Position numbers and translations under genes: made by a program. Shown in pieces: positions 4,174 to 60,052 of a stretch of DNA of 64,000 bases; position 1 is the first letter of the stretch; each line of letters begins with the position of its first letter. Under the pieces are notes generated by a model. The model was given only the letters and a program-made list of their open reading frames with translations. It ran no database searches and was not told the DNA's origin. This DNA is from Leptospira biflexa (GTDB lineage Bacteria > Spirochaetota > UBA4802 > UB4802): the NCBI GenBank assembly GCA_020721905.1, contig DYLU01000002.1, forward strand, positions 11,314-75,313. The letters are read 5' to 3'.

Positions 4174-6855
4174 TTACTTATTTTTAGATTTCAGAATAAT
4201 CTCATCACCAACAACAAGCAGGATGTTATCAATATCAATTTTATCAGAAGAGGGATATGTAGCATTACAGGTAAGCCATATCCCTTTTTCATTACTAAGT
4301 GGTATATACAAGAGCACCGTATCAAAGTATAATCGATTATCCTTGTTCTTCTTGTCAATAAATCTGCTTGAATGGGAACAACCAAAGGCAATATATGACA
4401 TGATCCCATTTTTTGCAAGCATGTAGCGTAAATACAGTATTGCATCAAGCTGTGTGCCTTTCCCTGATCTAGAAAATTGCAAAAGCGATGTAGCTCTATA
4501 AGGGGTGGGATTTATGGTATATTGTTTCAGTTTCCCCATAAGCTCTGATATGATTTCTTCAAATGTCTTCCCGTTTAATTCAGTTTCAGTAAGAAAATAA
4601 TCTGCAATTTTAAAATGCAAACTTTCTTCATTAATCCATTCAATCAGGTTTTCAGATGTAAGCGCCATTATCATAAAATTCCTGTTATTATGTGCCGATA
4701 GTTCATAGGCATTAAATCTGATGTGCTGTATGCCATGCTCTTCTTTTGTAACATTGCCCTGCAATTCTGATACTATAACAGGCTCAACCTGTGAACCCAT
4801 AACAACAATATCCATATCAAATTGCGATAGATTATAATTCTGCTGGATGTGCACTACAGGAATTCCCTTGTTTATAATAAATGATAGTTCCACCAGGGCA
4901 TAGCTGTTCAGGTTTTTATCAAAACATGCCTTAATTCCCCTTTGCAGTGAATTGTTTAAATATTTTATTTTCTTTTTTTCAATCTTTCCGTTTTCACTAA
5001 CCAGGTATATTGTACATCCTGTTATTGTTACATCGCTACCAAAAGCATAATCATTTACCTGTGATGAACTGCCAGTATAATACAGGTCATAAATTGAACA
5101 ATATGCAGTATTATTAATAAATCGTAATGCATAACAAGAATACAGCAGGCCATTAGTTTTTCCTTGTATAGTTTCAAAGGCTAATCGTGAAAAAACATTT
5201 TGATACACATAATCATCAAAAGCATTCTTCAAATAATCACTATGCCATGGTATATCAGAAACTATCACCTCATGCTTCTTGCGGTACATGCTTCCATCAG
5301 ATTCTTCCAGATCAGCTATTGTTGCCAGCAATGCATATGCATGTGAATCAAATCCCCGGGCTATTCTTTTAAACAATACACTTTTTGCATCATTGTATCG
5401 CTTTAATGCCACGAGCGCATGTATATATTTATCAAAAAATCTACTTTCATTATTGTGCTCAACAACAGATACTATCGATCCAAACTGCTCATTCTGCTCA
5501 TAATATTGAATTAATAAAGCTGTAACTTTATCATCTGGGTCTGGTATTGATTCTAATATACTGATGGCTTTTTCAATGTCATGGTATGCTGTAATTTGAG
5601 CAACGATATAAGCAAGATCATTACTGTAAGGATACTCTTTTAACAAAGATTCAAGATTTGCTCTTTTATTAATCAGTACATCTTTTTCTCTATACAACAG
5701 ATAAATCAATAATGGTAGATAATGCCCTTGATTGGCATCAAAAGATTTCTTTAGATATATATAATCATAGTAGCTTTGCCATAATACTGATCTAAACTTT
5801 TCATTATTTTTTAGTAAACTTTGCATTACCAGCTCATATCCCAAAACCTTGTTTTCATATTTATATTTCATCAATAGAGATAAAAATCTGCAGGCTGCTA
5901 ACTCATTGTATGAGTGTAAAGCTTCTTTATAATATTTCAATGCTTCATAACTTTGCAGCGATTCATAAAAAAGCGCAAGTTTAAAAGCCGGATCATTGGA
6001 ACGCTGCTTATTATACTGTGTAAGCAATTGATTTTCATATTCATAATATGTTTCATACCATTGGACATCATGATAATATGAATTTTCTGTATCAGGTAAA
6101 TGTATACTCTGGTCAGTATCATCATAAAACTGTATTTTCAAAAACATGTCTTCTGCTAGTTTATAATATAGGGCAACTGTAAAGCCGCCTTCAGATTCTA
6201 TATGAAACATCCTGACCAGCTTTTTCTTATCCGTCAGAGCATTAACACATATTTTTTTCCCGTTAATATAACAAACATAATCCATATTTGAATAAATCCT
6301 GAGTGTAACGGGTACACTGGCTTTAAAAGACCCACTGCAAAGGCCAGTAGCGTTATACTCCTGAGTAAATTGCTTAACAGGGATAAAACCATTTTGATAT
6401 TGAAATACACGTACCTTGTTTTTACCTGATAAGAAATAAGGATTATTGGTGCATTGAAGAGCTGCAATGCTTTGCGGCATTTTTTCTTTGATATTATCGT
6501 ATATATCCCATCGATTGTTACCCTTAGTGGCGTCTTTTTGGTGTAACTCATCAATGAGAGTAACAATATCCTGAACATACAGCTTTTCAGCATCTGTATC
6601 AGCACTTCTGATTAATTCTTTAAGTAACAATACTGTCTTACTGACCCCTGCAACTTGTTGTATATGATGAATATCTGCCAGAATTAATGCAGGATCAGCT
6701 TTCCCTGATACTATTTCTTTTTCATACAGTTCTATTATATTGAGTGAATTGCCGTTACAGTATATTTGCTTACTGTCTTTACTGATAACAGGCAGAGCTT
6801 TTACAGGAACTATCGCCACCAGTACAATGGCCGTTACTATTAATAATTTATTCAT
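4174..6855 (-). CDS. large secreted protein (893 aa), TPR-like helical repeats, possible degenerate transglutaminase-like C-terminal region
   Basis: N-terminal signal peptide MNKLLIVTAIVLVAIVPVKA. Long Tyr/Leu-rich helical-repeat middle. C-terminal segment SGKGTQLDAILYLRYMLAKNGI resembles a transglutaminase-like core, but the catalytic Cys is replaced by Thr. Function unknown. Confidence 0.55.
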   Translation of the reverse strand: MNKLLIVTAIVLVAIVPVKALPVISKDSKQIYCNGNSLNIIELYEKEIVSGKADPALILADIHHIQQVAGVSKTVLLLKELIRSADTDAEKLYVQDIVTLIDELHQKDATKGNNRWDIYDNIKEKMPQSIAALQCTNNPYFLSGKNKVRVFQYQNGFIPVKQFTQEYNATGLCSGSFKASVPVTLRIYSNMDYVCYINGKKICVNALTDKKKLVRMFHIESEGGFTVALYYKLAEDMFLKIQFYDDTDQSIHLPDTENSYYHDVQWYETYYEYENQLLTQYNKQRSNDPAFKLALFYESLQSYEALKYYKEALHSYNELAACRFLSLLMKYKYENKVLGYELVMQSLLKNNEKFRSVLWQSYYDYIYLKKSFDANQGHYLPLLIYLLYREKDVLINKRANLESLLKEYPYSNDLAYIVAQITAYHDIEKAISILESIPDPDDKVTALLIQYYEQNEQFGSIVSVVEHNNESRFFDKYIHALVALKRYNDAKSVLFKRIARGFDSHAYALLATIADLEESDGSMYRKKHEVIVSDIPWHSDYLKNAFDDYVYQNVFSRLAFETIQGKTNGLLYSCYALRFINNTAYCSIYDLYYTGSSSQVNDYAFGSDVTITGCTIYLVSENGKIEKKKIKYLNNSLQRGIKACFDKNLNSYALVELSFIINKGIPVVHIQQNYNLSQFDMDIVVMGSQVEPVIVSELQGNVTKEEHGIQHIRFNAYELSAHNNRNFMIMALTSENLIEWINEESLHFKIADYFLTETELNGKTFEEIISELMGKLKQYTINPTPYRATSLLQFSRSGKGTQLDAILYLRYMLAKNGIMSYIAFGCSHSSRFIDKKNKDNRLYFDTVLLYIPLSNEKGIWLTCNATYPSSDKIDIDNILLVVGDEIILKSKNK

Positions 6856-22950: not shown

Positions 22951-23580
22951 TTATGATAACCCTTTCAACGCAAACTGGAATATAAATTCAATTAAATCAT
23001 CTATGGTCATCCATTCTTCCGGAGAAAACCACAACCGTGTTCTAACAATCATTGAAGCAATAAGATTCAAAGTAATTTTCTCATCTACTTTTCTGAATAA
23101 TCCCTTTTCAATTCCACGCTTAAGTATAGTGTACCCTATACAATTATATTCATCACGCAGATCCAGAATAACTTTCCTCCTTTCAGGAGAAAGATTCCTG
23201 AGCTCTGTATCAAATAATAACTTTGAAGCTCTTTTTTCCCCCAAAGTAATTTTAACATGAGTTTCTATCAATAATCGTAATTGCTGCAGGGGATCTCCAT
23301 CTTCTTTTTCCAGATACCTGATAGGATTGACGATCTCTTCCATTTCCTCTTTTAAGATTGAGAACAGTATCTCTTCTTTACTTTCAAAAAAATTGTAAAT
23401 ATTGGCAGGCCTGAAACCACATTCATTTGCAATATCCTTCATACTGGTTTCAGCATACCCTTTTTCCCAAAAAAGTACCTGTGATTTTTGCATTATCAGT
23501 GTTCTCTGTTTACCATTTTCTTTTACTACAACATCAGGCATCGATATTATCTCCTTAAACTGATAATAAATTGCTTCCAC
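22951..23580 (-). CDS. TetR/AcrR-family transcriptional regulator
   Basis: N-terminal HTH (QRTLIMQKSQVLFWEKGYAETSMKDIANECGFRPANIYNFFESKEEIL). Confidence 0.8.
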   Translation of the reverse strand: MEAIYYQFKEIISMPDVVVKENGKQRTLIMQKSQVLFWEKGYAETSMKDIANECGFRPANIYNFFESKEEILFSILKEEMEEIVNPIRYLEKEDGDPLQQLRLLIETHVKITLGEKRASKLLFDTELRNLSPERRKVILDLRDEYNCIGYTILKRGIEKGLFRKVDEKITLNLIASMIVRTRLWFSPEEWMTIDDLIEFIFQFALKGLS

Positions 23581-23683
23581 TCTACTTTAATAGCAAAGCA
23601 TTACGAATGAAATCATTGCACCATATCACAATGCTATATTCTTTAAATTTACCACATTAAAATACCATTATCGTAAATACAAG

Positions 23684-23718
23684 AAAAAAAACCTCGTACC
23701 ATATATACGAGGTTTTTT
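23684..23718. terminator. bidirectional rho-independent terminator (A-run / CCTCGTA-loop-TACGAGG / T-run)
   Basis: Sequence aaaaaaaacctcgtaccatatatacgaggtttttt read directly. Terminates the minus-strand hydratase operon. Confidence 0.7.
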
Positions 23719-23751: not shown

Positions 23752-24521
23752 TTATTCACCCTTAAATTCAGGTTTTCGCTTTTGTGCAAACGCCATCATG
23801 CCTTCCATACAATCTTTGGTAGGAAATAGTTTTGCCAGTTCTTCCCGTTCCATTTTTAAATGCATTTCAGGAGACATTGAAGGACTGGCTGACAATACCT
23901 TCAAGATTGCTTTGACAGATAGCGGTGGCCTTTGAGCTAATTCTTCTGCAAATTTCAATACTGCACCCATAAAATCCTGTTCTTCAAAAACTTTATTTAC
24001 CAGACCTATTGCAAGTGCTTCTTCTGCCTCAAGTTGTTTTCCAAAAAGCATTAATTCTAATGCCTTTGCTCTTCCAACCAACCGAGGCAAACGTAATGTA
24101 CCGCCATAACCTGGCATAATACCTAAATTTGTCTCAGTTAAACCTATTCGTGCACCCTTTTTCATGAGCCGTATATGACATGCCATTGCCAATTCACAAC
24201 CACCACCTAAGGCATGCCCATTTAATGCAGCTATAACTGGTTTAGGATAATCTTCTATTTTGTTCCATACATCCTGGCCACGTTTCAAAAAATCAACTGC
24301 ACTGAAATCCCCAAATCCCTGTGAAAGATCCGCACCGGCACAGAAAATCTTATCGCCCGAACCCGTTATAACCAGCACACGAATATTTTTATCAATTTCC
24401 AGTGTATCCAGATACTTTCGCATAGTTTCAAAAACATCATGGCTCAGCTGATTAGCTTTAGGTTTATTAATTGTTAAAACACCAATCATCCCTTTTTGTT
24501 CTAATAATACTGCATCTGACA
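23752..24521 (-). CDS. enoyl-CoA hydratase/isomerase (crotonase family)
   Basis: Crotonase fold motifs (ITGSGDKIFCAGADL, ALNGHALGGGCELAMACH). Start corrected to ATG 24521 (MSDAVLLEQ) with SD aggagg 7 nt upstream. The track ORF extends to 24561. Confidence 0.85.
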
Positions 24522-24532
24522 TATGACACCTC

Positions 24533-25696
24533 CTATCTCCCAATTGTTTTAAACGAACCATCTATAATTTCAGGTTCTGGTTTTAGAATGTCTAATTTAA
24601 AGCGCTGTGCCAGATAATTAAGGCAATCAGTTAATTGTTGTGGTTGGACTCCTGATGCCAGTGCAAATGGCCCAGCAAATGCATTCATCCCATATTTTAC
24701 ACCATCATCAATATCCTGAACACCAGCAGCAATACCTTCTTTATATACCTTTACTGCTTCATTAACCTGGACTGCCATAAGATGGAGCGGTGTTATTTCT
24801 TCAGTATCCGGCATCTCAGGAATAATAGCTTTACCATCCTTCCATTCATATATGCCTTTCCCGCTCTTCATCCCAAGATAGCCTTTTTCCAGGCATCCAA
24901 GCAAAAATTTTCCTGGTTTATACCGGGGCGATAGTGTCTGTGCATAATATTCCAGTGTATGGCAGAAAACATCCAGCCCAACAAAATCAGCTGTTTCAAA
25001 AGGAGCCATTTTAACACCCATTTTCTTCATTTTTCCATCTATTTGTGCGGGATGGATTTTTCCTTCATCTAAAATAGCACTAAGTAATGCCTGATTAGGT
25101 GCACTGATTCTGTTAACAATAAAACCCGGTCTATCTTTCAAAACTTTTACGGGGAATTTATCAATTTTCTTTGTTAATTCAAACAAAATATTAATCGTAT
25201 TCTCCGATGTCTTTGCGCCATAGATTAACTCAACCAGTTTCATCCTGGTTACAGGGTTGAAATAATGCATTCCAGCAAATCGCTCAGGATTTGTGACAGC
25301 GGTAGCTATTTCAGTAATGCTCATGGTAGAAGTGTTTGTTGCAAGTATTGCATCAGAAGCGCATGCGGATGAAGCTTTTGCAAATACATCCTTCTTCAAT
25401 TGCATATTTTCCGGTACAGCCTCAATGATTACATGAGCATCCGATACTCCTTTTTGTAAATCTGTTGTTATACTTATTTTTCCAAGAACTTCATCAACAG
25501 TTCCCTGCAATTTCCCTTTTGATGCAAGGAAATCTAAACTTTCCTTTACTTTTTTTATCGCATTATCAAGGAATTCCTGTTTAACATCTATCATAGTAAC
25601 CATGAACCCATTTTGAGCGCACACCTGTGCTATGCCATGACCCATTGCCCCCGAACCTATAACGGCAATTTTCTTTACATCATTAATATTTTTCAT
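24533..25696 (-). CDS. 3-hydroxyacyl-CoA dehydrogenase (NAD-binding, with C-terminal extension)
   Basis: Rossmann motif IAVIGSGAMGHGIA. 3HCDH N- and C-domains. Start corrected to ATG 25696 (MKNIND), with the SD ggaggt lying within track codons 2-3. Confidence 0.85.
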   Translation of the reverse strand: MKNINDVKKIAVIGSGAMGHGIAQVCAQNGFMVTMIDVKQEFLDNAIKKVKESLDFLASKGKLQGTVDEVLGKISITTDLQKGVSDAHVIIEAVPENMQLKKDVFAKASSACASDAILATNTSTMSITEIATAVTNPERFAGMHYFNPVTRMKLVELIYGAKTSENTINILFELTKKIDKFPVKVLKDRPGFIVNRISAPNQALLSAILDEGKIHPAQIDGKMKKMGVKMAPFETADFVGLDVFCHTLEYYAQTLSPRYKPGKFLLGCLEKGYLGMKSGKGIYEWKDGKAIIPEMPDTEEITPLHLMAVQVNEAVKVYKEGIAAGVQDIDDGVKYGMNAFAGPFALASGVQPQQLTDCLNYLAQRFKLDILKPEPEIIDGSFKTIGR

Positions 25697-25723
25697 AATT
25701 ACCTCCATTTATAAAAATAATAG

Positions 25724-26920
25724 CTATTTAAGCTCCTTACTTGACATTTCCAGTATGTTGCGAGCAATAATCAAATGCTGTATCTGTCCGGTACCTTCAA
25801 AAATATCCATAATCTTGCTATCCCTCATCCATTTTTCTGCTAAATAGTGAGTTGAATATCCCACCGGCCCAAGCAATTCACTGCATCGCTGGGTTATCAA
25901 GGTTGCATACCTGCCTGCTTTAGCTTTTGCCATTGATGCTTCTAAGTTATTAAACTGGTTATTATCAGCCATCCAGGCAGCACGCCAGGTTAAAAGTCTC
26001 ATAGCTTCAACATTAGCATCCATCAAATACCACTCACGCTCAACTGCAGAAACATTTGATAAATTCTTCTTATAATCAAAAGTATATCCTTTCTTTTCAT
26101 ATTGTTCCCGGGTAAATTCAACAGCTGCACGTGCAATACCTGTTGCCATTGAAGCAACCAATGGCCTGGTATTATCAAATGTTTTCATGACACCTTTGAA
26201 TCCCTCCGTGGACATTTTCACTTCAGGATCCCCCAATATGTTATTATAAGGAATTCTGCAATCGCTGAGCACAAAGGTACCAGTATCAGAACCCCTGATG
26301 CCTAATTTATGCTCTAAATGCTCCAGAGTAAAACCAGGAGTCCCTTTTTCCACAACAAATGATTTGATTCCAGATTTCCCGGCTTTTTTATCAACTGTCG
26401 CCCATACAACCACCACTTCACTTCTGTCTGCGCAGGTAACAAAAATCTTTTCTCCATTGAGTACCCAGTAATCGCCATCACGAGTAGCGGTTGTTGTAAT
26501 AGCTCCTGAATCAGAACCTGCGCCCGGTTCTGTAATTGCCATAGCAGCCCACTTATTACCAAAACGTTCCAGCTGTTCATCATTAGCAACTGCCAAAATG
26601 GCCGCGTTCCCTAAACCAGCATTTGGGAATGACAATAAAAGAGCTGCATCTCCCCAACACATTTCTTCAATGGTCACTACCATCCCCAGGTTTGCTCCGC
26701 GTTTTGGCTTCTTTACTTCACCCGAAGCAGAAGATTCACCCTCTTTCTTTTTCTTAGGGCGGGCCATTACCTTTATCCCTCTGAACATATCAAGTTCCTT
26801 AGGATATTCATGCTCGGCTTCATCATATTTCCTTGAGATTGGACGCAGAACACCTTCTGCCAGTTTATGCATGTTATCCTGTAATGTTTTTATATAATCC
26901 GGTGTTACTAATTGAATCAT
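25724..26920 (-). CDS. acyl-CoA dehydrogenase with Lys-rich insertion (398 aa)
   Basis: ACAD C-terminal motif DIFEGTGQIQHLIIARNI. Start corrected to ATG 26920 (MIQLVTPDY) with SD ggagga 5 nt upstream. The track extension to 27049 overlaps the upstream ACAD. Insert ARPKKKKEGESSASGEVKKPKRG lies near the N-terminal domain. Confidence 0.85.
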   Translation of the reverse strand: MIQLVTPDYIKTLQDNMHKLAEGVLRPISRKYDEAEHEYPKELDMFRGIKVMARPKKKKEGESSASGEVKKPKRGANLGMVVTIEEMCWGDAALLLSFPNAGLGNAAILAVANDEQLERFGNKWAAMAITEPGAGSDSGAITTTATRDGDYWVLNGEKIFVTCADRSEVVVVWATVDKKAGKSGIKSFVVEKGTPGFTLEHLEHKLGIRGSDTGTFVLSDCRIPYNNILGDPEVKMSTEGFKGVMKTFDNTRPLVASMATGIARAAVEFTREQYEKKGYTFDYKKNLSNVSAVEREWYLMDANVEAMRLLTWRAAWMADNNQFNNLEASMAKAKAGRYATLITQRCSELLGPVGYSTHYLAEKWMRDSKIMDIFEGTGQIQHLIIARNILEMSSKELK

Positions 26921-26939: not shown

Positions 26940-28037
26940 TTAAATAATTGCCATGGCTTCACTAATTGCAATACTACGCCCATTACGATAATATCGCTCA
27001 ACAGGATGATCCCTGATATACCCATGGCCACCAAGAATCTGAACCCCATAATCAGTAAGTTTCATAGTCATTTCTCCAGCATAAATCTTTGCAAGGAATG
27101 ACTCACGTTTTGCATCCATGCCTAACTCAATAGCTGATGCAGCCTTCCATGTTAATAGCCTCATTGCATCAACTTCATAAGCCATTTCAGCTATCATAAA
27201 AGCTATGGATTGCCTGCTGGCTATGGGATCACCAAACTGCTGGCGTTCTTTTGCATATTTCCTTGCGTATTCATATGAAGCACGTGAAATGCCTGTTCCA
27301 ATAGCAGCCATTGCAGTTCTTGTTCTCTGGATTAGCCAATGAAATGCTGTTTCATCCCCTAATTTGTTTCTTTCATGAATTGTACAATTTTCAAACGTAA
27401 CTTCAAAAGTTGGCAGTGCCCACCAACCGCAATTTTTTTCTTTTTCTCCAACAGATAGTCCTTTTTCATCTTTATCTACTATAAACAGATGTGGATTGCC
27501 CTCATAATTTGCTATAACTATCATATGCAACGCTTCATCAGCAAGGGGAACAAAGCACTTTTTCCCATTTATAACATACGAGTTAGCCTTCTTTTCAGCT
27601 TTTGTTTCACAATTCCATACATCAAAACCCACACTAAGTTCGTTAATTGCCAGTGATGCCGGAACAAATGAATCACTGGAAAATTCCGGAAGATACTTTT
27701 CCTTTTGCTCTTTTGAGCCTAAATGAACCAGGGGGAGTACAAAGAGAGCAGGCAGCATTGCATAGACTGCAAAGCTCATATCTCCAAAAGCCAGTTCCTC
27801 AAGAACTAAAGAATGGAGAATTGGTGAACTCCCCATACCATATCCACCATATTCTTCAGGGATCATTGACTGAATTATACCTAGTTCCCAGAATTTTTGG
27901 ACTGCCTGTTTATCCAATTGCCTTTTTTCATCCCATTGGTGAATAGAATCTATCACTGTAGCCTGAACAAGCTGTCGGACAGTATCCTGCATCATCTGCT
28001 GTTCTTCAGATAATGCAAAACTTATTTCTTCTACCAT
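26940..28037 (-). CDS. acyl-CoA dehydrogenase family protein (365 aa, short)
   Basis: ACAD three-domain layout. C-terminus GGHGYIRDHPVERYYRNGRSIAISEAMAII has the canonical YEGT replaced by SEA. Adjacent to the second ACAD, so possibly a heteromeric partner. Confidence 0.8.
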   Translation of the reverse strand: MVEEISFALSEEQQMMQDTVRQLVQATVIDSIHQWDEKRQLDKQAVQKFWELGIIQSMIPEEYGGYGMGSSPILHSLVLEELAFGDMSFAVYAMLPALFVLPLVHLGSKEQKEKYLPEFSSDSFVPASLAINELSVGFDVWNCETKAEKKANSYVINGKKCFVPLADEALHMIVIANYEGNPHLFIVDKDEKGLSVGEKEKNCGWWALPTFEVTFENCTIHERNKLGDETAFHWLIQRTRTAMAAIGTGISRASYEYARKYAKERQQFGDPIASRQSIAFMIAEMAYEVDAMRLLTWKAASAIELGMDAKRESFLAKIYAGEMTMKLTDYGVQILGGHGYIRDHPVERYYRNGRSIAISEAMAII

Positions 28038-28053
28038 ATAATAACCTCCTTAA

Positions 28054-28091
28054 TAAAATAAGTACTGACATGTCAGTACTTATTTTATTAT
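28054..28091. promoter_or_regulatory. perfect 38-bp palindrome AATAAAATAAGTACTGACATGTCAGTACTTATTTTATT, candidate TetR operator of the beta-oxidation operon
   Basis: Read directly. Lies between the TetR stop (28105) and the ACAD SD/start (28044-28037). Shares the core TACTGACATGTCAGTA with the second site at 28838-28860. Confidence 0.6.
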
Positions 28092-28104
28092 TGAAATAAG
28101 TCAA

Positions 28105-28719
28105 CTATTTTTTATTAAAAATACCATGTGCAATAATGTTAGAGGCCTTATCAGATATTGCTTCTAAATCGCCAATTAGCATGTTGTCATCCATTGTTAT
28201 AGTCAAATAATAATGGGCTAACCGGAAGACTCCTCCAGCAATTAGATTGGCCATAAAATTTAGATCCATCTGTTTATCAATATTATTGAATTTCACTGCA
28301 ATATTAAGATCAGCAATAATCATATTAATTAATTTGTTTTCAAAATGCTGAATTTTTTGCTCAAAATGATCTGGCAAGCCTAAACCGGCACGTAAAATTA
28401 TATTTGCCCGGTCTCTATCTTCAAAGAAAAATCTGAATGCTTCATACAACCTTTTTTTAAGATACATATATGGAGAAATTGTTTCTAAATCTTCTTTAAC
28501 CGATAATTCATTGATATAGTTTTCCCATTCAATTAAAAATCTTTCCAGTAACGATATAAAAAGATGTTCCTTATTGGAAAAATATTGATAAACAGTTCCC
28601 CGACCAATTTTTGCCGATTCAATAATATCTGAAATTTGTGTTGCATAATAGCCCTTTCCCGAAAATAACCTTTTTGCATGAAGCAATATTTTATCTCTTG
28701 TATCATCTGCTCTGGTCAT
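28105..28719 (-). CDS. TetR/AcrR-family transcriptional regulator
   Basis: N-terminal HTH (RDKILLHAKRLFSGKGYYATQISDIIESAKIGRGTVYQYFSNKEHLF). Flanked on both sides by related palindromes. Confidence 0.8.
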   Translation of the reverse strand: MTRADDTRDKILLHAKRLFSGKGYYATQISDIIESAKIGRGTVYQYFSNKEHLFISLLERFLIEWENYINELSVKEDLETISPYMYLKKRLYEAFRFFFEDRDRANIILRAGLGLPDHFEQKIQHFENKLINMIIADLNIAVKFNNIDKQMDLNFMANLIAGGVFRLAHYYLTITMDDNMLIGDLEAISDKASNIIAHGIFNKK

Positions 28720-28837
28720 TATGCCTCCTTTGTTTTTTTCAACTCAATGACAATGAGTAGCAAAAAACAATTACATTCTTAAAAAGAAATTTAAAAAAAT
28801 TATTTTTTTTTAATAAATTATTCTTGACAAATCAAAA

Positions 28838-28860
28838 TAATACTGACATGTCAGTATTAC
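28838..28860. promoter_or_regulatory. second palindromic site AATACTGACATGTCAGTATT in the divergent TetR/SCP2 promoter region, just downstream of a TTGACA -35 hexamer
   Basis: Read directly. TTGACA at 28823-28828 precedes it. Same core as the 28054-28091 palindrome. Confidence 0.6.
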
Positions 28861-28921
28861 AAGCAAATTTTTTATATTTGCAAAATATTTTACATAATAT
28901 TATTTTTTAAGGAGGATCAAC

Positions 28922-29479
28922 ATGGTTATTGCACCAAATACTTCAATTGATCAATTTCTCACAGAAATTATGCCAAAAGCAGCAACGGAAATGCTTCAAA
29001 ATTCCAATGCACCCAAAGAACTTGGTGGCACTGAAATCACCATGGTTGTTGAAGTTAATGGTAAATCCTATGGATTCAAAGTTAAAGATGGCAAAAATAT
29101 TGAAACATGTGGTGATATCGCAAAACCTATGCTGAGATTAAAAATATCCGAAGCTGATTTAAAGAAAATGATTGAAACCAATAATCTCGATATGCTGTTA
29201 GGCATGCAGAAGGATCTGACAAGAGCCCGATATAATGCTCTATCTTCTTTGAAAGGTAGTTTTATTGCCAAATTAAAAAATGACGATGGTTCTGAATTTA
29301 CCATTGAAGCAATACTTAACGGTGCAACATCACCACAATCAATTTTCCGTATGACAACAAAAGACTCAGCTGCTTTGATGAAAAAGGAAACAAATCCTGT
29401 TAATCTTTTCATGTCAGGTGCAATGAAAATCGAAGGTGATATGAGTTTTGCAATGGCAACCCAACCCCTATTCACTTGA
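28922..29479 (+). CDS. SCP2 (sterol-carrier-protein-2-like) lipid-binding domain protein
   Basis: SCP2-like C-terminal pattern (LFMSGAMKIEGDMSFAMATQPLF). 185 aa. Strong SD aaggagga. First gene of the plus-strand ligase/thiolase operon. Confidence 0.65.
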   Translation: MVIAPNTSIDQFLTEIMPKAATEMLQNSNAPKELGGTEITMVVEVNGKSYGFKVKDGKNIETCGDIAKPMLRLKISEADLKKMIETNNLDMLLGMQKDLTRARYNALSSLKGSFIAKLKNDDGSEFTIEAILNGATSPQSIFRMTTKDSAALMKKETNPVNLFMSGAMKIEGDMSFAMATQPLFT

Positions 29480-29554: not shown

Positions 29555-31432
29555 ATGGAAACTTTACCCTGGTACAAAGAATATAAAGTTTTAGGTATAC
29601 CAAAAACATTTAAGCCTTATCCTGATAAACCTGTATATGATATTCTTGAAATAGCTGCAAAAAAATACAAAAATAATGGCCTTTTACAAAAGGATTATTT
29701 TATATCTTATCCGCAACTTCTTGAGTATGTAAACAGACTGGCTTCACGCCTACAGTCTTTTGGACTGATCAAAAATGATATTATTGCAACGATTTTACCA
29801 ACTTCTACAGAATTTATAATTGCTGATTACGCAATTTCAAAAGCAGGGCTCATCCATCTGCCATGCAGTTCACTTGAACCTGCTGAAGCTCTTGAACACA
29901 AATTTAAAGAAGGTAAGCCTAAAGCTATAATTTGTACCAGCAACGATATTAAAATTGTCACCCACTTAATAAAAAAGACCAGTGTCAGAGCTATCATCAT
30001 TGCAGACACACGTACCAGCAACTTTGTTCCAACTATCGATACCAATAAAATTAAAATACCAAGCTCCTCAATTTATGAGTTATACTCATTAATCCAGAAT
30101 TCTTCAGGAAACATTAATCCAGTTCCTATTAATGTAGAAACTGATATCGAAACATTAATTTTTACAGGTGGTACCACAGGTATTCCAAAAGGCTGTATGC
30201 TCACACATAGAAATATATATGCTAACTGTATACAGAATCTCCATGCATTAGGTGCCGGAGGATTGACATTCAAGGGGGCAATATCGGTTATATTGGGATT
30301 ACCATTTTTTCATACCTATGGGCATTGCCTTATGCATACAATGATGCTTTTTGGATTCAATATCATCATTATCAACGATCCACGTGATACTAAATCAATG
30401 GTTGAAAATATAAAGAAGCACTATCCGGTTATGCAGATAGGTGTACCAGCTCAATTCATGAAATTAGCTAAAGAAGATCTCAGCGGTATAGGCATAATTG
30501 GTCTTTCAGGATCGGCTCCTCTATCTGAATCGACACAGGAAGAATTTGAAAAACGTTCAAATAGCGGCATAATGGAAGGTTATGGTCTTTCAGAGATGTC
30601 CCCAGTGACACACCTTAATCCTTCAGTGATATACCGTATTTTAGGAGGGCGTTTTGGTGTCCGATTAGTATCTCTCTTATCATCAATTCCCGGAAATAGT
30701 TACTTAACCAATCAGCTCTTTCGTTTGATAGGGACAAGAAACTTTGGCTGGATTTTTACTAAAATTATTTCATATCGCATGAAAAAAACAAGTCAAAAGC
30801 CCGGAAAGAAATCTGTAGAAAAACGAAGAACAATTGGTGTTCCATTCCCCGACACTGAAGTACGTTTTCTTGATTTTGAAACTGGTAACATTCTGACAAT
30901 TGATGATATGCTGGCTGGAAAAAGAGCAGAGATGCTTTTAAAGGGACCACAGCGTATGTTAGGATACTGGCCAAAACCTGATAGTGGCTGTGATGCTGAA
31001 GGTTTCATTCATACCGGTGACATAGTACAGATAGACTCTAATGGTTATTTTTACATTGTTGATCGTTCCAAGGATATGATTAATGTCTCAGGTTTCAAAG
31101 TATATTCAAAAGAAATTGATGACATCGCTGGTGAACATCCACATGTTGAAGCAGCTGCAACTGTTGGAATACCTAATCCAGAAAAAGAAGGTAGCGAAGT
31201 AGTTGTTCTTTTTGTTCAGTTGTATCCACAATACAAAAACAAAACAAAAGAACAAGATATATTAAAATACCTTCAATCAAAAGTTGCAAAATATGCAGTA
31301 CCCAAATTTATACAACTGGTAGATGAACTTCCCCGAACAGCAGTTGAAAAAGTTGATAAAAAAATATTACGGCAAATGGCTATTGATCATTTTCTACTAT
31401 CAAAAAAGAAAGCAAAAATCAAAACAAAATAA
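29555..31432 (+). CDS. AMP-dependent acyl-CoA synthetase/ligase (625 aa) with ~60-aa insertion
   Basis: AMP-binding motifs (FTGGTTGIPKGCMLTH, GYGLSEMSPV). Basic insertion (RFGVRLVSLLSSIPGNSYLTNQLFRLIGTRNFGWIFTKIISYRMKKTSQKPGKK) before the C-terminal domain. SD ggagga plus ATG. Confidence 0.8.
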   Translation: METLPWYKEYKVLGIPKTFKPYPDKPVYDILEIAAKKYKNNGLLQKDYFISYPQLLEYVNRLASRLQSFGLIKNDIIATILPTSTEFIIADYAISKAGLIHLPCSSLEPAEALEHKFKEGKPKAIICTSNDIKIVTHLIKKTSVRAIIIADTRTSNFVPTIDTNKIKIPSSSIYELYSLIQNSSGNINPVPINVETDIETLIFTGGTTGIPKGCMLTHRNIYANCIQNLHALGAGGLTFKGAISVILGLPFFHTYGHCLMHTMMLFGFNIIIINDPRDTKSMVENIKKHYPVMQIGVPAQFMKLAKEDLSGIGIIGLSGSAPLSESTQEEFEKRSNSGIMEGYGLSEMSPVTHLNPSVIYRILGGRFGVRLVSLLSSIPGNSYLTNQLFRLIGTRNFGWIFTKIISYRMKKTSQKPGKKSVEKRRTIGVPFPDTEVRFLDFETGNILTIDDMLAGKRAEMLLKGPQRMLGYWPKPDSGCDAEGFIHTGDIVQIDSNGYFYIVDRSKDMINVSGFKVYSKEIDDIAGEHPHVEAAATVGIPNPEKEGSEVVVLFVQLYPQYKNKTKEQDILKYLQSKVAKYAVPKFIQLVDELPRTAVEKVDKKILRQMAIDHFLLSKKKAKIKTK

Positions 31433-31457
31433 TAATCAGAGAACAAGAGAGGTACCA

Positions 31458-32636
31458 ATGAGAGAATGTGTATTTATTGATGGTGTGAGAACACCCAACG
31501 GAAGAGCTCATCGTGAAAAAGGCTGGTTCAGAAACTTAAGGCCTGATGAGCTTTTAACACCAGTGTACAATGCACTATTTGAGCGAAACAGTAAAGTTGC
31601 CCCTGGTATGATTGATGCTGTTTTTGTTGGTTGTGCTAATCCATCAGGCATGCAGAACGATATCGGCAGGTTAGCATGGTTAGCATCTGGACTACCAGAT
31701 TCAGTCCCTACCAATACTTTGACCAATCAATGTCCATCCGGCATGTCTGCCACCATGCATGCCGCACGAGCAATTATGACCGGTGAAGCAGATATCATCA
31801 TAGCTGCTGGCATAGAGGATATGGAAAAAGTACCAATGGGTGCCAATATGGATTTCCCTCCACGCTTGTTGAAATACTATAATGGAGCGGATCTTTTAAT
31901 GGGAGCTACTGCCGAAAAAGTAGCTGAGAAATGGAATATATCTCGAGATGACATGGAAAATATGGCATACTGGTCAAATAAAAAGGCATGGGAAGCAACA
32001 CAAGCCGGCAAATTCAAAAAGGAGATAGTTCCAATAATGGGTCTTGATGATAATGGAAATGAATTCTTAGTAGATAGGGATCAATGGATTCGCGAAAAGG
32101 TAGATAGGGAAAAAATGAAAACCATGATGTCACCATTCAAGCCCAATGGCGTTGTAACAGCAGCAACATCATCACCGCTGACACAGGGTGCTTCAGCACT
32201 ACTTCTCATGAGTAGAGAAAAAGCTGATAAATTGGGACTCCCGTATACATATAAATACTCATATGGAGTATTAGCCGGATGTGATCCTACTGTAATGGGA
32301 ATTGGACCAATTCCTGCTATAAAGAAACTTGTTGCACGGACTGGTTTGAATCTAGACGAAGTGGGAGCAATTGAACTGAATGAAGCTTTTGCAAGTCAGT
32401 CATTAGCATGTATACGTGAACTTAAACTAGATAATGACAATGCTCCATTTAAGCGTGTGAATGTTTGGGGCGGTGCTATTGCTTTAGGTCATCCGTTAGG
32501 TGAATCAGGTGCACGTATTATTGTAACGTTGCTTAATGTGTTACAAACTGAATTCCCGAATGCGAAATATGGACTTGCTTCGCTATGTGGTGCTTTTGGC
32601 AATGCAGGAGCATTACTGGTTGAAAAAGTTAATTAA
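31458..32636 (+). CDS. thiolase (acetyl-CoA C-acyltransferase / 3-ketoacyl-CoA thiolase), 392 aa
   Basis: N-terminus MRECVFIDGVRTPNG. Active-site Cys context NQCPSG. C-terminal GHPLGESGARI and CGAFG motifs. Start corrected from track 31323 to ATG 31458 (SD gagagg). The upstream 45 codons overlap the ligase. Confidence 0.85.
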   Translation: MRECVFIDGVRTPNGRAHREKGWFRNLRPDELLTPVYNALFERNSKVAPGMIDAVFVGCANPSGMQNDIGRLAWLASGLPDSVPTNTLTNQCPSGMSATMHAARAIMTGEADIIIAAGIEDMEKVPMGANMDFPPRLLKYYNGADLLMGATAEKVAEKWNISRDDMENMAYWSNKKAWEATQAGKFKKEIVPIMGLDDNGNEFLVDRDQWIREKVDREKMKTMMSPFKPNGVVTAATSSPLTQGASALLLMSREKADKLGLPYTYKYSYGVLAGCDPTVMGIGPIPAIKKLVARTGLNLDEVGAIELNEAFASQSLACIRELKLDNDNAPFKRVNVWGGAIALGHPLGESGARIIVTLLNVLQTEFPNAKYGLASLCGAFGNAGALLVEKVN

Positions 32637-32700: not shown

Positions 32701-32777
32701 TTAGTTCATAATTTATGTGCACATAAATAGTCATACCAAATAAATGTAACAATTTTAATTGCAAAAGGAGGTTTGTC

Positions 32778-59398: not shown

Positions 59399-60052
59399 AT
59401 GAACGACTATACTGCCTTTTATGACCTTGATCATACCATACTTGCATCAAGTTCAGGTACACTCATTGTCAGGGATCTTTACAAAAGGGGTATGATATCA
59501 CTATTACCTCTTATCAATGGCATGTTACTTTCACTGTTATATAAATCAGGTATTATCAATACACAATCACTGATAACAAATTGGGTTAGAAGATTAAAAG
59601 GTATAGAAGCGAAAACCATGGAACAGTTTTCTGAAATTTTTTTTGAAGAGACAGTTAAACATTACATTTATCCTCAGGCTCTTGAATCAATGTATATGCA
59701 TAAAGCTAAAGGAGCATCCATTGTTTTACTTTCTGCATCACTGGATTTCATATGTAAACCTATAGTAAAGCATCTTCACCTTGATGATCTTCTATGTACT
59801 GAAATGGAAGTAAACAATGGTTACTATACCGGTTCAATAAAAGGCAAGTACTGTTGCGGGATAGAAAAACTTAACCGGGCCATACAGTTTTGCACAGCTC
59901 ATAACATCGATATCAAATCTGCATATTACTATGCTGATTCTGTTGCCGATATACCTGTTCTTGAAGCGGTTGGATTCCCTCAATGTGTCAATCCTGATTC
60001 TGCTTTACGGAAAATAGCCCATATAAAAGGCTGGCCTGTGCACAGGTGGTGA
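59399..60052 (+). CDS. HAD-IB family hydrolase (phosphoserine-phosphatase-like)
   Basis: Motif I FYDLDHTIL. HAD-IB cap architecture. Confidence 0.7.
   Translation: MNDYTAFYDLDHTILASSSGTLIVRDLYKRGMISLLPLINGMLLSLLYKSGIINTQSLITNWVRRLKGIEAKTMEQFSEIFFEETVKHYIYPQALESMYMHKAKGASIVLLSASLDFICKPIVKHLHLDDLLCTEMEVNNGYYTGSIKGKYCCGIEKLNRAIQFCTAHNIDIKSAYYYADSVADIPVLEAVGFPQCVNPDSALRKIAHIKGWPVHRW

Follow-up and report, generated by a model that had tools for sequence, protein, structure and literature searches.

Repressors of the TetR type that respond to acyl-CoA and control β-oxidation are well known from Bacillus, Thermus, Sulfolobus and some Proteobacteria. Bacillus FadR (YsiA) represses the genes for fatty-acid degradation as well as its own gene via palindromic operators of ~21 bp, and in B. 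halodurans two offset dimers of the protein occupy the operator (PMC5397183). FadR of Sulfolobus acidocaldarius is a local repressor of the TetR family, which acts through a few semi-palindromic operators inside the β-oxidation cluster, is released by acyl-CoA, and binds with two different stoichiometries according to the operator (PMC6449355). Here we describe a locus of Leptospira biflexa that lies in a 64,000-nucleotide stretch of contig DYLU01000002.1 (hereafter the window). A long perfect palindrome, site 1, separates tetR1, the gene for a TetR-family regulator, from ACAD1, the first gene of an acyl-CoA dehydrogenase (ACAD) operon, and a shorter palindrome with the same 14-bp core, site 2, stands upstream of tetR1. 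Judged by sequence comparison, this core, ACTGACATGTCAGT, is very probably the operator of the tetR1 repressor, and the two operators would serve three transcription units of β-oxidation genes. The elements at issue are the following (positions in the window).

28051..28090, no strand: site 1, a perfect palindrome of 40 bp with 20-nt arms, zero spacer and 100% complementarity
28064..28077, no strand: 14-bp candidate operator core of site 1, exact match
28045..28051, minus strand: Shine-Dalgarno sequence AAGGAGG of ACAD1 (sequence reading), overlapping the last base of the 40-bp palindrome
28099..28104, minus strand: candidate -35 hexamer TTGACT of a putative internal ACAD1 promoter, abutting the tetR1 stop codon, 21 nt upstream of the core
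28105..28719, minus strand: tetR1, a TetR-family regulator of 204 aa (Pfam TetR_N; distantly FadR/YsiA-like), the proposed binder of the core
28838..28859, no strand: site 2, a perfect palindrome of 22 bp, TAATACTGACATGTCAGTATTA, with the same 14-bp core at 28842-28855, in the divergent intergenic region between tetR1 and the SCP2 gene, kept at the orthologous position in relatives
28856..28883, minus strand: candidate tetR1 promoter (sequence reading, for which an alternative exists), with -35 TTGCAA (28883-28878), a 16-nt spacer, -10 TGTAAT (28861-28856) and the core directly after it
28824..28829, plus strand: TTGACA on the SCP2 strand, invariant in the clade, 12 nt from the site-2 core; the -35 in other clades lies 18-24 nt from the core

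The two genes that flank site 1 are both encoded on the minus strand, and the 67-bp spacer that holds the palindrome extends from the tetR1 stop codon (TAG, 28107-28105) to the ATG of ACAD1 at 28037. An earlier note on this DNA had described here a perfect inverted repeat of 38 bp, AATAAAATAAGTACTGACATGTCAGTACTTATTTTATT. The repeat is indeed found at 28052-28089, with the Shine-Dalgarno sequence of ACAD1 (28051 to 28045) beginning directly after it, but perfect symmetry runs one base further on each side, and the true length is thus 40 bp. Its arm of 20 nt compares with a longest arm of 12 nt across 200 first-order Markov simulations, and sites 1 and 2 are the two longest zero-spacer perfect palindromes within the window. 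The 16-mer TACTGACATGTCAGTA is present there in exactly two copies, at 28063-28078 and at 28841-28856, the second within the 22-bp palindrome upstream of tetR1, where the earlier note had also seen the core recur. When up to three mismatches are allowed, one further match appears (59797, inside the open reading frame (ORF) 59399-60052); the chance expectation is 0.32 matches, and none of 100 shuffles reached three. The 14-mer at up to two mismatches is found in the window at sites 1 and 2 only.

The site is conserved together with tetR1 over a wide range of bacteria. Homologues of tetR1 were found at 94% to 37% identity, and a search with 18 of them, aligned, retrieved 80 loci, which come from metagenome-assembled genomes of Spirochaetota and Leptospirales and from Desulfobacterales including Desulfatibacillum alkenivorans DSM 16219. 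Of these 80 loci, 61 contain the 14-mer when one mismatch is allowed, usually in two or three copies and over a range of tetR1 identity from 94% to ~33%; we estimate the chance expectation at ~0.002 per 12.6-kb locus. In roughly 40 loci the same layout recurs, namely thiolase, acyl-CoA synthetase and SCP2 genes leading away on one side, one or more sites before tetR1, then tetR1 itself, another site, and ACAD1, ACAD2, 3-hydroxyacyl-CoA dehydrogenase (HCDH) and enoyl-CoA hydratase (ECH) genes on the other. The site therefore precedes three units: SCP2-acyl-CoA synthetase-thiolase, tetR1, and ACAD1-ACAD2-HCDH-ECH. In loci L021, L023 and L059, tetR1 is followed by SCP2 on the opposite strand, two sites and ACAD1, and in L045, L050 and L060 the site stands before ACAD1 with no tetR gene upstream. 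By keeping the site at the 5′ ends of ACAD1 and SCP2, these rearranged loci speak against the view that it simply belongs to the 3′ end of tetR1. The helix I(G/A)RGT(V/I/L)YQYF is kept by tetR1 in every locus that has the site.

Two kinds of paralogue were also encountered. Five of them (L066, L073, L075, L078 and L080), whose helix lies in a DIQxAAGVARGTIYQYF context, carry one site ~30 bp past their own stop codon, at ~6620-6685 in the first four loci and at 3397-3410 in L080. Others have an ARGTFYRYF helix (Q to R) and lack the site (L013, L038, L048, L049, L051, L054, L055 and L057); these were checked for a variant operator, to see whether protein and DNA vary together, and no shared palindrome was found upstream of them. 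Their genomic setting is a different one: most of them share the same conserved coding sequence in the upstream flank, which we take to be gatB-like.

The promoter context of the sites is likewise conserved. TTGAC occurs within 45 nt upstream of 36 of the 39 ACAD1-proximal sites and of 43 of the 44 SCP2-proximal sites; the gap from TTGAC to the core is mostly 18-28 nt overall, and mostly 19-28 nt with a mode of 21 at the ACAD1-proximal sites. This spacing suggests that the core covers the -10/+1 region, and in many loci three flank bases combine with ACT from the core into what looks like a -10 box (TAGACT, for example). In the window, an internal ACAD1 promoter is inferred from the relatives, and the conserved TTGACT that abuts the tetR1 stop codon points to site 1 as an internal-promoter operator, which could also block read-through. 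At site 2, the layout of the candidate tetR1 promoter matches that of distant homologues of high G+C content, in which the -10 hexamer stands immediately before ACTGAC (TTGACN-17-TAYGGT-ACTGAC). Both operators that the earlier note had postulated for the locus are conserved in relatives, and the autoregulation it proposed is plausible because the site lies in the promoter region of tetR1 itself. Its picture of a divergently controlled regulon needs amendment: site 2 does lie in a divergent intergenic region, but site 1 stands between the co-directional, tandem genes tetR1 and ACAD1, and there are three units rather than two.

Further elements were seen around site 2. All members of the clade share the octamer TTGACAAA (28824-28831, plus strand) unchanged; it could belong to a promoter whose register is uncertain, or serve as an auxiliary half-site (cf. 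CTGACA, the half-site of the core). A 20-bp imperfect hairpin at 28730-28770 on the minus strand, just upstream of the ribosome-binding site of tetR1, was considered as a parallel design of a hairpin before a ribosome-binding site and rejected; it is probably fortuitous, because it is not conserved even in relatives of 93-94% identity.

The properties of tetR1 are those expected of a TetR repressor related in a distant manner to FadR. It matches PF00440 (TetR_N) over residues 11-56 with 54.8 bits (cut-off 24), and the Pfam scan reported this domain only, with no YsiA-type C-terminal domain. Its AlphaFold2 model (pLDDT 86.4) has ten helices in the all-helical TetR fold. Foldseek with this model gave 1vi0, 3whb and 3whc as best matches, with TM-scores of 0.78-0.85, and the matches listed are of the TetR family; the profile of the 18 homologues matches the FadR structures 1vi0, 3whb, 5gp9 and 5gpa over the full length. 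Against NCBIfam NF053878, the equivalog model of Bacillus FadR, tetR1 scores 43 bits, far below the cut-off of 200. On these comparisons tetR1 would be FadR-like in its working yet stand outside the FadR equivalog. The tetR1 subfamily and its 14-base site appear to be undescribed so far. No paper in the full-text literature matched the 14-mer or its gapped form, among the 20 matches listed for the 12-mer and 10-mer core there was no bacterial operator of this kind but mostly primer-like or chance strings, and nothing specific was found on a TetR or β-oxidation regulator of Leptospira or Desulfatibacillum.

The genes behind the sites are as follows.

26940..28037, minus strand: ACAD1, acyl-CoA dehydrogenase, the first gene downstream of site 1 (Pfam Acyl-CoA_dh_N, _M and _1; conserved synteny)
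25724..26920, minus strand: ACAD2, a second acyl-CoA dehydrogenase, with its likely start at ATG 26920, not 27049
24533..25708, minus strand: 3-hydroxyacyl-CoA dehydrogenase (Pfam 3HCDH_N, 3HCDH)
23752..24561, minus strand: enoyl-CoA hydratase, the last gene of the ACAD operon (Pfam ECH_1)
23683..23718, minus strand: intrinsic terminator that ends the ACAD operon, AAAAAACCUCGUA...UACGAGGUUUUUUUU, with an A-tract, a G+C-containing stem and a run of eight U; -16.7 kcal/mol
28922..29479, plus strand: SCP2-domain protein, the first gene of the divergent operon (Pfam SCP2; conserved synteny)
29555..31432, plus strand: long-chain acyl-CoA synthetase (Pfam AMP-binding; NCBIfam long-chain-fatty-acid--CoA ligase matches below their cut-offs)
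31323..32636, plus strand: thiolase (acetyl-CoA C-acyltransferase), ORF as listed (Pfam Thiolase_N, Thiolase_C; TIGR01930 378 bits, above the cut-off)
22951..23580, minus strand: TetR2, a second TetR gene at the end of the cluster, with a YsiA/FadR-like C-terminal domain (Pfam; FadR model 66.8 bits, cut-off 200)

By domain annotation and genomic context, these genes make up a complete β-oxidation cycle together with the activating ligase, which agrees with the earlier note's view of the predicted targets as β-oxidation genes. Two starts deserve comment. The listed ACAD2 ORF (from 27049) overlaps ACAD1 by 110 nt, and GAGGAGG stands before the ATG at 26920; the thiolase ORF as listed likewise overlaps that of the synthetase, and its true start is probably ~130 nt further in. 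TetR2 is absent from the earlier note's account of the locus.

A mechanism can be proposed on this basis. At site 1, the repressor could bind as one dimer, or as two offset dimers like B. halodurans FadR. When bound there, it would exclude RNA polymerase from the -10/start region of the internal ACAD promoter and would also obstruct read-through transcription arriving from tetR1. By analogy with FadR, the repressor would be expected to leave the DNA in response to long-chain acyl-CoA, the product of the co-regulated synthetase, and this release would induce the β-oxidation genes and tetR1 itself. The choice of long-chain acyl-CoA as the effector is inferred from fold similarity to 3whc, the complex of FadR with stearoyl-CoA.

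Several observations weigh against this scheme. First, 19 of the 80 homologue loci lack the site, and the sites of the five paralogues described above have no close co-directional fad gene and may belong to the 3′ end of the tetR gene instead. Second, tetR1 is very probably the binder, but this prediction rests on the co-occurrence of gene and site. Third, the promoters fit imperfectly: the -10 candidates at the expected distance in the window (AGTACT, TAAGTA and ATAAGT) are all weak, a consensus scan of the window finds no promoter in the spacer that separates tetR1 from ACAD1, and the invariant TTGACA at site 2, 12 nt from the core, misfits the spacing of the other clades. Finally, the low score of tetR1 on the FadR model (43 bits, cut-off 200) bears on the effector step.

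The earlier note had also called the length and perfection of the palindrome unusual. The length is indeed the greatest in the window and beyond the simulations, but it does not belong to the operator as such: what is conserved measures ~14-22 bp, and only the closest clade has the 40-bp form. The conserved operator does not include the outer 13 bp of each arm, for which a separate explanation is needed. In most relatives the perfect arms at the same position are 7-10 nt long, and site 2 keeps arms of 8-12 nt. Long arms are seen only at the ACAD1-proximal site of the closest clade, where the flank sequences differ among loci and the perfect arms have the following lengths.

Window and L001: 20 nt
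L002 and L005: 19 nt
L148: 18 nt
L004: 17 nt
L006: 15 nt
L162: 14 nt
L003: 10 nt
L093: 9 nt

Covariation of the arms was scored by pair counting on an alignment of ten distinct variants with 22 pairs. Eight of the 22 pairs are changed on both sides, and the score of 0.283 (0.159 in shuffles) was reached by none of 500 shuffles, all slid controls being lower as well. The paired changes in the outer arms indicate that the symmetry is actively maintained. Extended protein contacts are unlikely as its cause, because the arm sequence varies between close relatives.

It is quite possible, if somewhat short of probable, that the outer 13 bp of either arm are functionless. According to this explanation, the perfect operator, itself under strong selection, seeds a hairpin in single-stranded DNA during replication, and template switches repeatedly copy one flank onto the other, by which the palindrome is extended and made perfect again wherever the flanks are weakly constrained. 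Template switching has been documented in E. coli, and also as a source of compensatory changes in stems (PMC7202029; PMC8794818). The long arms are specific to the lineage and vary in sequence and in length (14-20 nt, as against 9-10 nt in L003 and L093); mirrored indels and, in L148, an A:T to G:C double change are what a single template switch would yield; and long palindromes on the same core occur sporadically in unrelated lineages (L007, L061, L067 and L073). Site 2, which is constrained on both flanks by the TGTAAT-type hexamer and the invariant octamer, remains short. However, the pattern expected of template switching is indistinguishable from that of selection on a hairpin, and the left arm, which overlaps the promoter spacer and the -10 region, is not obviously free to drift.

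Another explanation, which we consider rather doubtful, is that the palindrome acts mainly as RNA. A hairpin of 18-20 bp in tetR1 read-through transcripts would terminate, attenuate or stabilize them and insulate tetR1 from the ACAD operon, with the operator-like core being secondary; in a weaker, dual-purpose form, only the 40-bp extension would have been selected for RNA. The hairpin is strong: folding of the 40-mer as RNA yields a stem of 18 bp capped by a CAUG loop (-19 kcal/mol, z = -7.3), and in its context the energy reaches -26.8 kcal/mol (z = -5.3). Moreover, compensatory changes within the clade preserve the outer stem, and the A-rich 5′ arm, mixed upper stem and U-rich 3′ arm (UUAUUUUAUUA) resemble the genuine terminator after the hydratase gene (23683-23718), which serves as an internal standard for what a terminator looks like in this genome. 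A separate terminator between tetR1 and ACAD1 was seen neither in the window nor in L007 and L025; the latter two loci were inspected on the supposition that the palindrome doubles as a terminator only in compact spacers, and the absence of a terminator there was uninformative. Against a primary RNA role, the core is conserved as a sequence, beyond its pairing, over two phyla, and recurs where no gene ends upstream, as at site 2 and in L045, L050 and L060. The full stem is followed by AAGGAGG rather than by the U-run of an intrinsic terminator, and only a shorter stem of 8 bp (-8.5 kcal/mol) followed by UAUUUUAUUA is terminator-like; a terminator scan of the window did not report the palindrome. 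An Rfam scan of 27800-29100 gave sub-threshold noise only. Transcripts of the ACAD operon that start at the predicted internal promoter would begin inside the palindrome and therefore could not form the hairpin, the arms at the same position are only 7-10 nt in most relatives, and the pairs in the long arms are all strictly Watson-Crick.

A fuller combination of the two roles can also be imagined, although we hold it to be unlikely. The 40-bp palindrome would then have two selected jobs, one as the DNA operator and promoter core of the ACAD operon and the other as an RNA terminator, roadblock or stability hairpin in tetR1 read-through transcripts, the compensatory changes of the arms would reflect selection on RNA, and the 14-mer with its TetR subfamily would be the main, as yet unnamed, switch of fatty-acid degradation in Leptospirales-like spirochaetes and Desulfobacterales. 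If this were true, the extended stem would set how far tetR1 transcription leaks into the β-oxidation operon.

The assignment of the core to tetR1 could be wrong if another protein, TetR2 or an unlinked factor, bound the palindrome and tetR1 were a mere neighbour. TetR2 surpasses tetR1 on the Bacillus FadR model (66.8 and 43 bits, respectively), has a YsiA-like C-terminal domain, and is encoded at the end of the same cluster. However, TetR2 is found in the closest relatives only (five of L001-L006), while the site occurs in more than 50 loci that have tetR1 but not TetR2; its recognition helix, FRPANIYNFF, differs from the IGRGTVYQYF of tetR1, and the site is unlike the Bacillus FadR box, GATGAATGAATACTCATTCAT (PMC5397183). 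Binding by another protein is thus very improbable. As an operator for TetR2 itself, we considered an 18-bp perfect palindrome, ATTTATGTGCACATAAAT, at 32711-32728 in the intergenic region that follows the thiolase gene. This palindrome ranks third by length in the window; it is not conserved in relatives and was rejected.

In a scan of metagenomes, the exact 16-mer was found on at least 120 contigs. An ORF of the TetR1 family lies within 400 bp of it on at least 24 of these, 11 of which carry fad loci of the same clade and 13 of which are of high G+C content (0.55-0.74; L094, L106, L112, L127, L129, L131, L137, L138, L143, L156, L160, L169 and L189). The TetR proteins of the latter group, whose lineage is very different, have ~25% identity and a helix IGRGTFYLYF, and the identical site, GGTACTGACATGTCAGTACC, is found right after the -10 box of their own promoter, the upstream region reading TTGACN-17-TAYGGT and then directly ACTGACATGTCAGTACC; their neighbours gave no informative Pfam matches. 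The remaining 96 matches listed have no TetR1-like gene near the site, and most of them share the 16-mer alone, with arms of exactly 8 nt. Matches that share nothing more present the pattern of chance in a very large collection, not that of a repeat family. In one contig, L092, a gene for a 7TMR-DISM methyl-accepting chemotaxis protein is preceded, at a distance of ~185 nt, by a site of the window type (569-602) that has a TTGACA box (TTGACAaataagTACTGACATGTCAGTACtt); this gene, a single instance and the sole possible extra target among the matches listed, may be an additional member of the regulon.

The earlier note had named, as observations that would speak against an operator, the scattering of the motif over many unrelated loci in the manner of a REP-like repeat and its absence upstream of the orthologous operons of relatives; neither was observed, as the site is present there across two phyla and has two copies in 64 kb. 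It is therefore hardly credible that the palindrome represents one copy of a REP/MITE-like element, repetitive or mobile and dispersed, that lacks a specific regulatory role: at least 96 of the metagenome contigs do lack a TetR1-like gene near the 16-mer, but these matches look like chance, both copies in the window stand at orthologous promoter positions, and orthologous loci hold one to three copies at fixed positions.

If tetR1 acts on the core as proposed, the switch is of an ordinary kind and adds no new principle. It does add a predicted pair of regulator and operator for Leptospirales-related spirochaetes and for the Desulfobacterales that oxidize alkanes and fatty acids, lineages in which the control of fatty-acid catabolism had, as far as we found, not been described. 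The 14-mer is invariant enough for regulons to be predicted directly in the genomes of both groups. The high-G+C TetR group, with its identical site at ~25% identity, is a natural data set on the co-conservation of recognition helix and operator, and the clade-specific 40-bp extension offers a clean, small case in which long palindromes under selection can be set against by-products of template switching.

Among described systems, QacR, a TetR protein, has a long palindromic operator of 28 bp, IR1, on which two dimers are bound cooperatively. It is a precedent for operators that exceed the footprint of a single dimer; however, QacR regulates multidrug efflux, the conserved element in our locus is ~14-22 bp, and the sequence of the 40-bp extent differs among close relatives, so that sequence-specific contacts at such a distance from the core are not to be expected. 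Intrinsic terminators, such as that at 23683-23718, share with site 1 a perfect hairpin flanked by A-rich sequence on the 5′ side and by U-rich sequence on the 3′ side, but site 1 differs from them in that its core is conserved across phyla, no U-run follows the full stem, and it recurs in promoter regions. FadR of Sulfolobus acidocaldarius (6en8) ranks 44th among the fold matches of tetR1, more weakly than the Bacillus proteins. The best full-length matches in both profile and fold are to FadR (YsiA) of Bacillus (1vi0, 3whb and 3whc; B. halodurans 5gp9, 5gpa and 5gpc), although identity to tetR1 is only ~20-22%, the operator described here does not have the ATGAATGA...TCATTCAT form of the FadR box and is unrelated to it in sequence (PMC5397183), and the hosts are Spirochaetota and Desulfobacterales rather than Bacillota. 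Judged by the genomic context of the sites, the predicted control of β-oxidation genes is nevertheless shared with Bacillus FadR.

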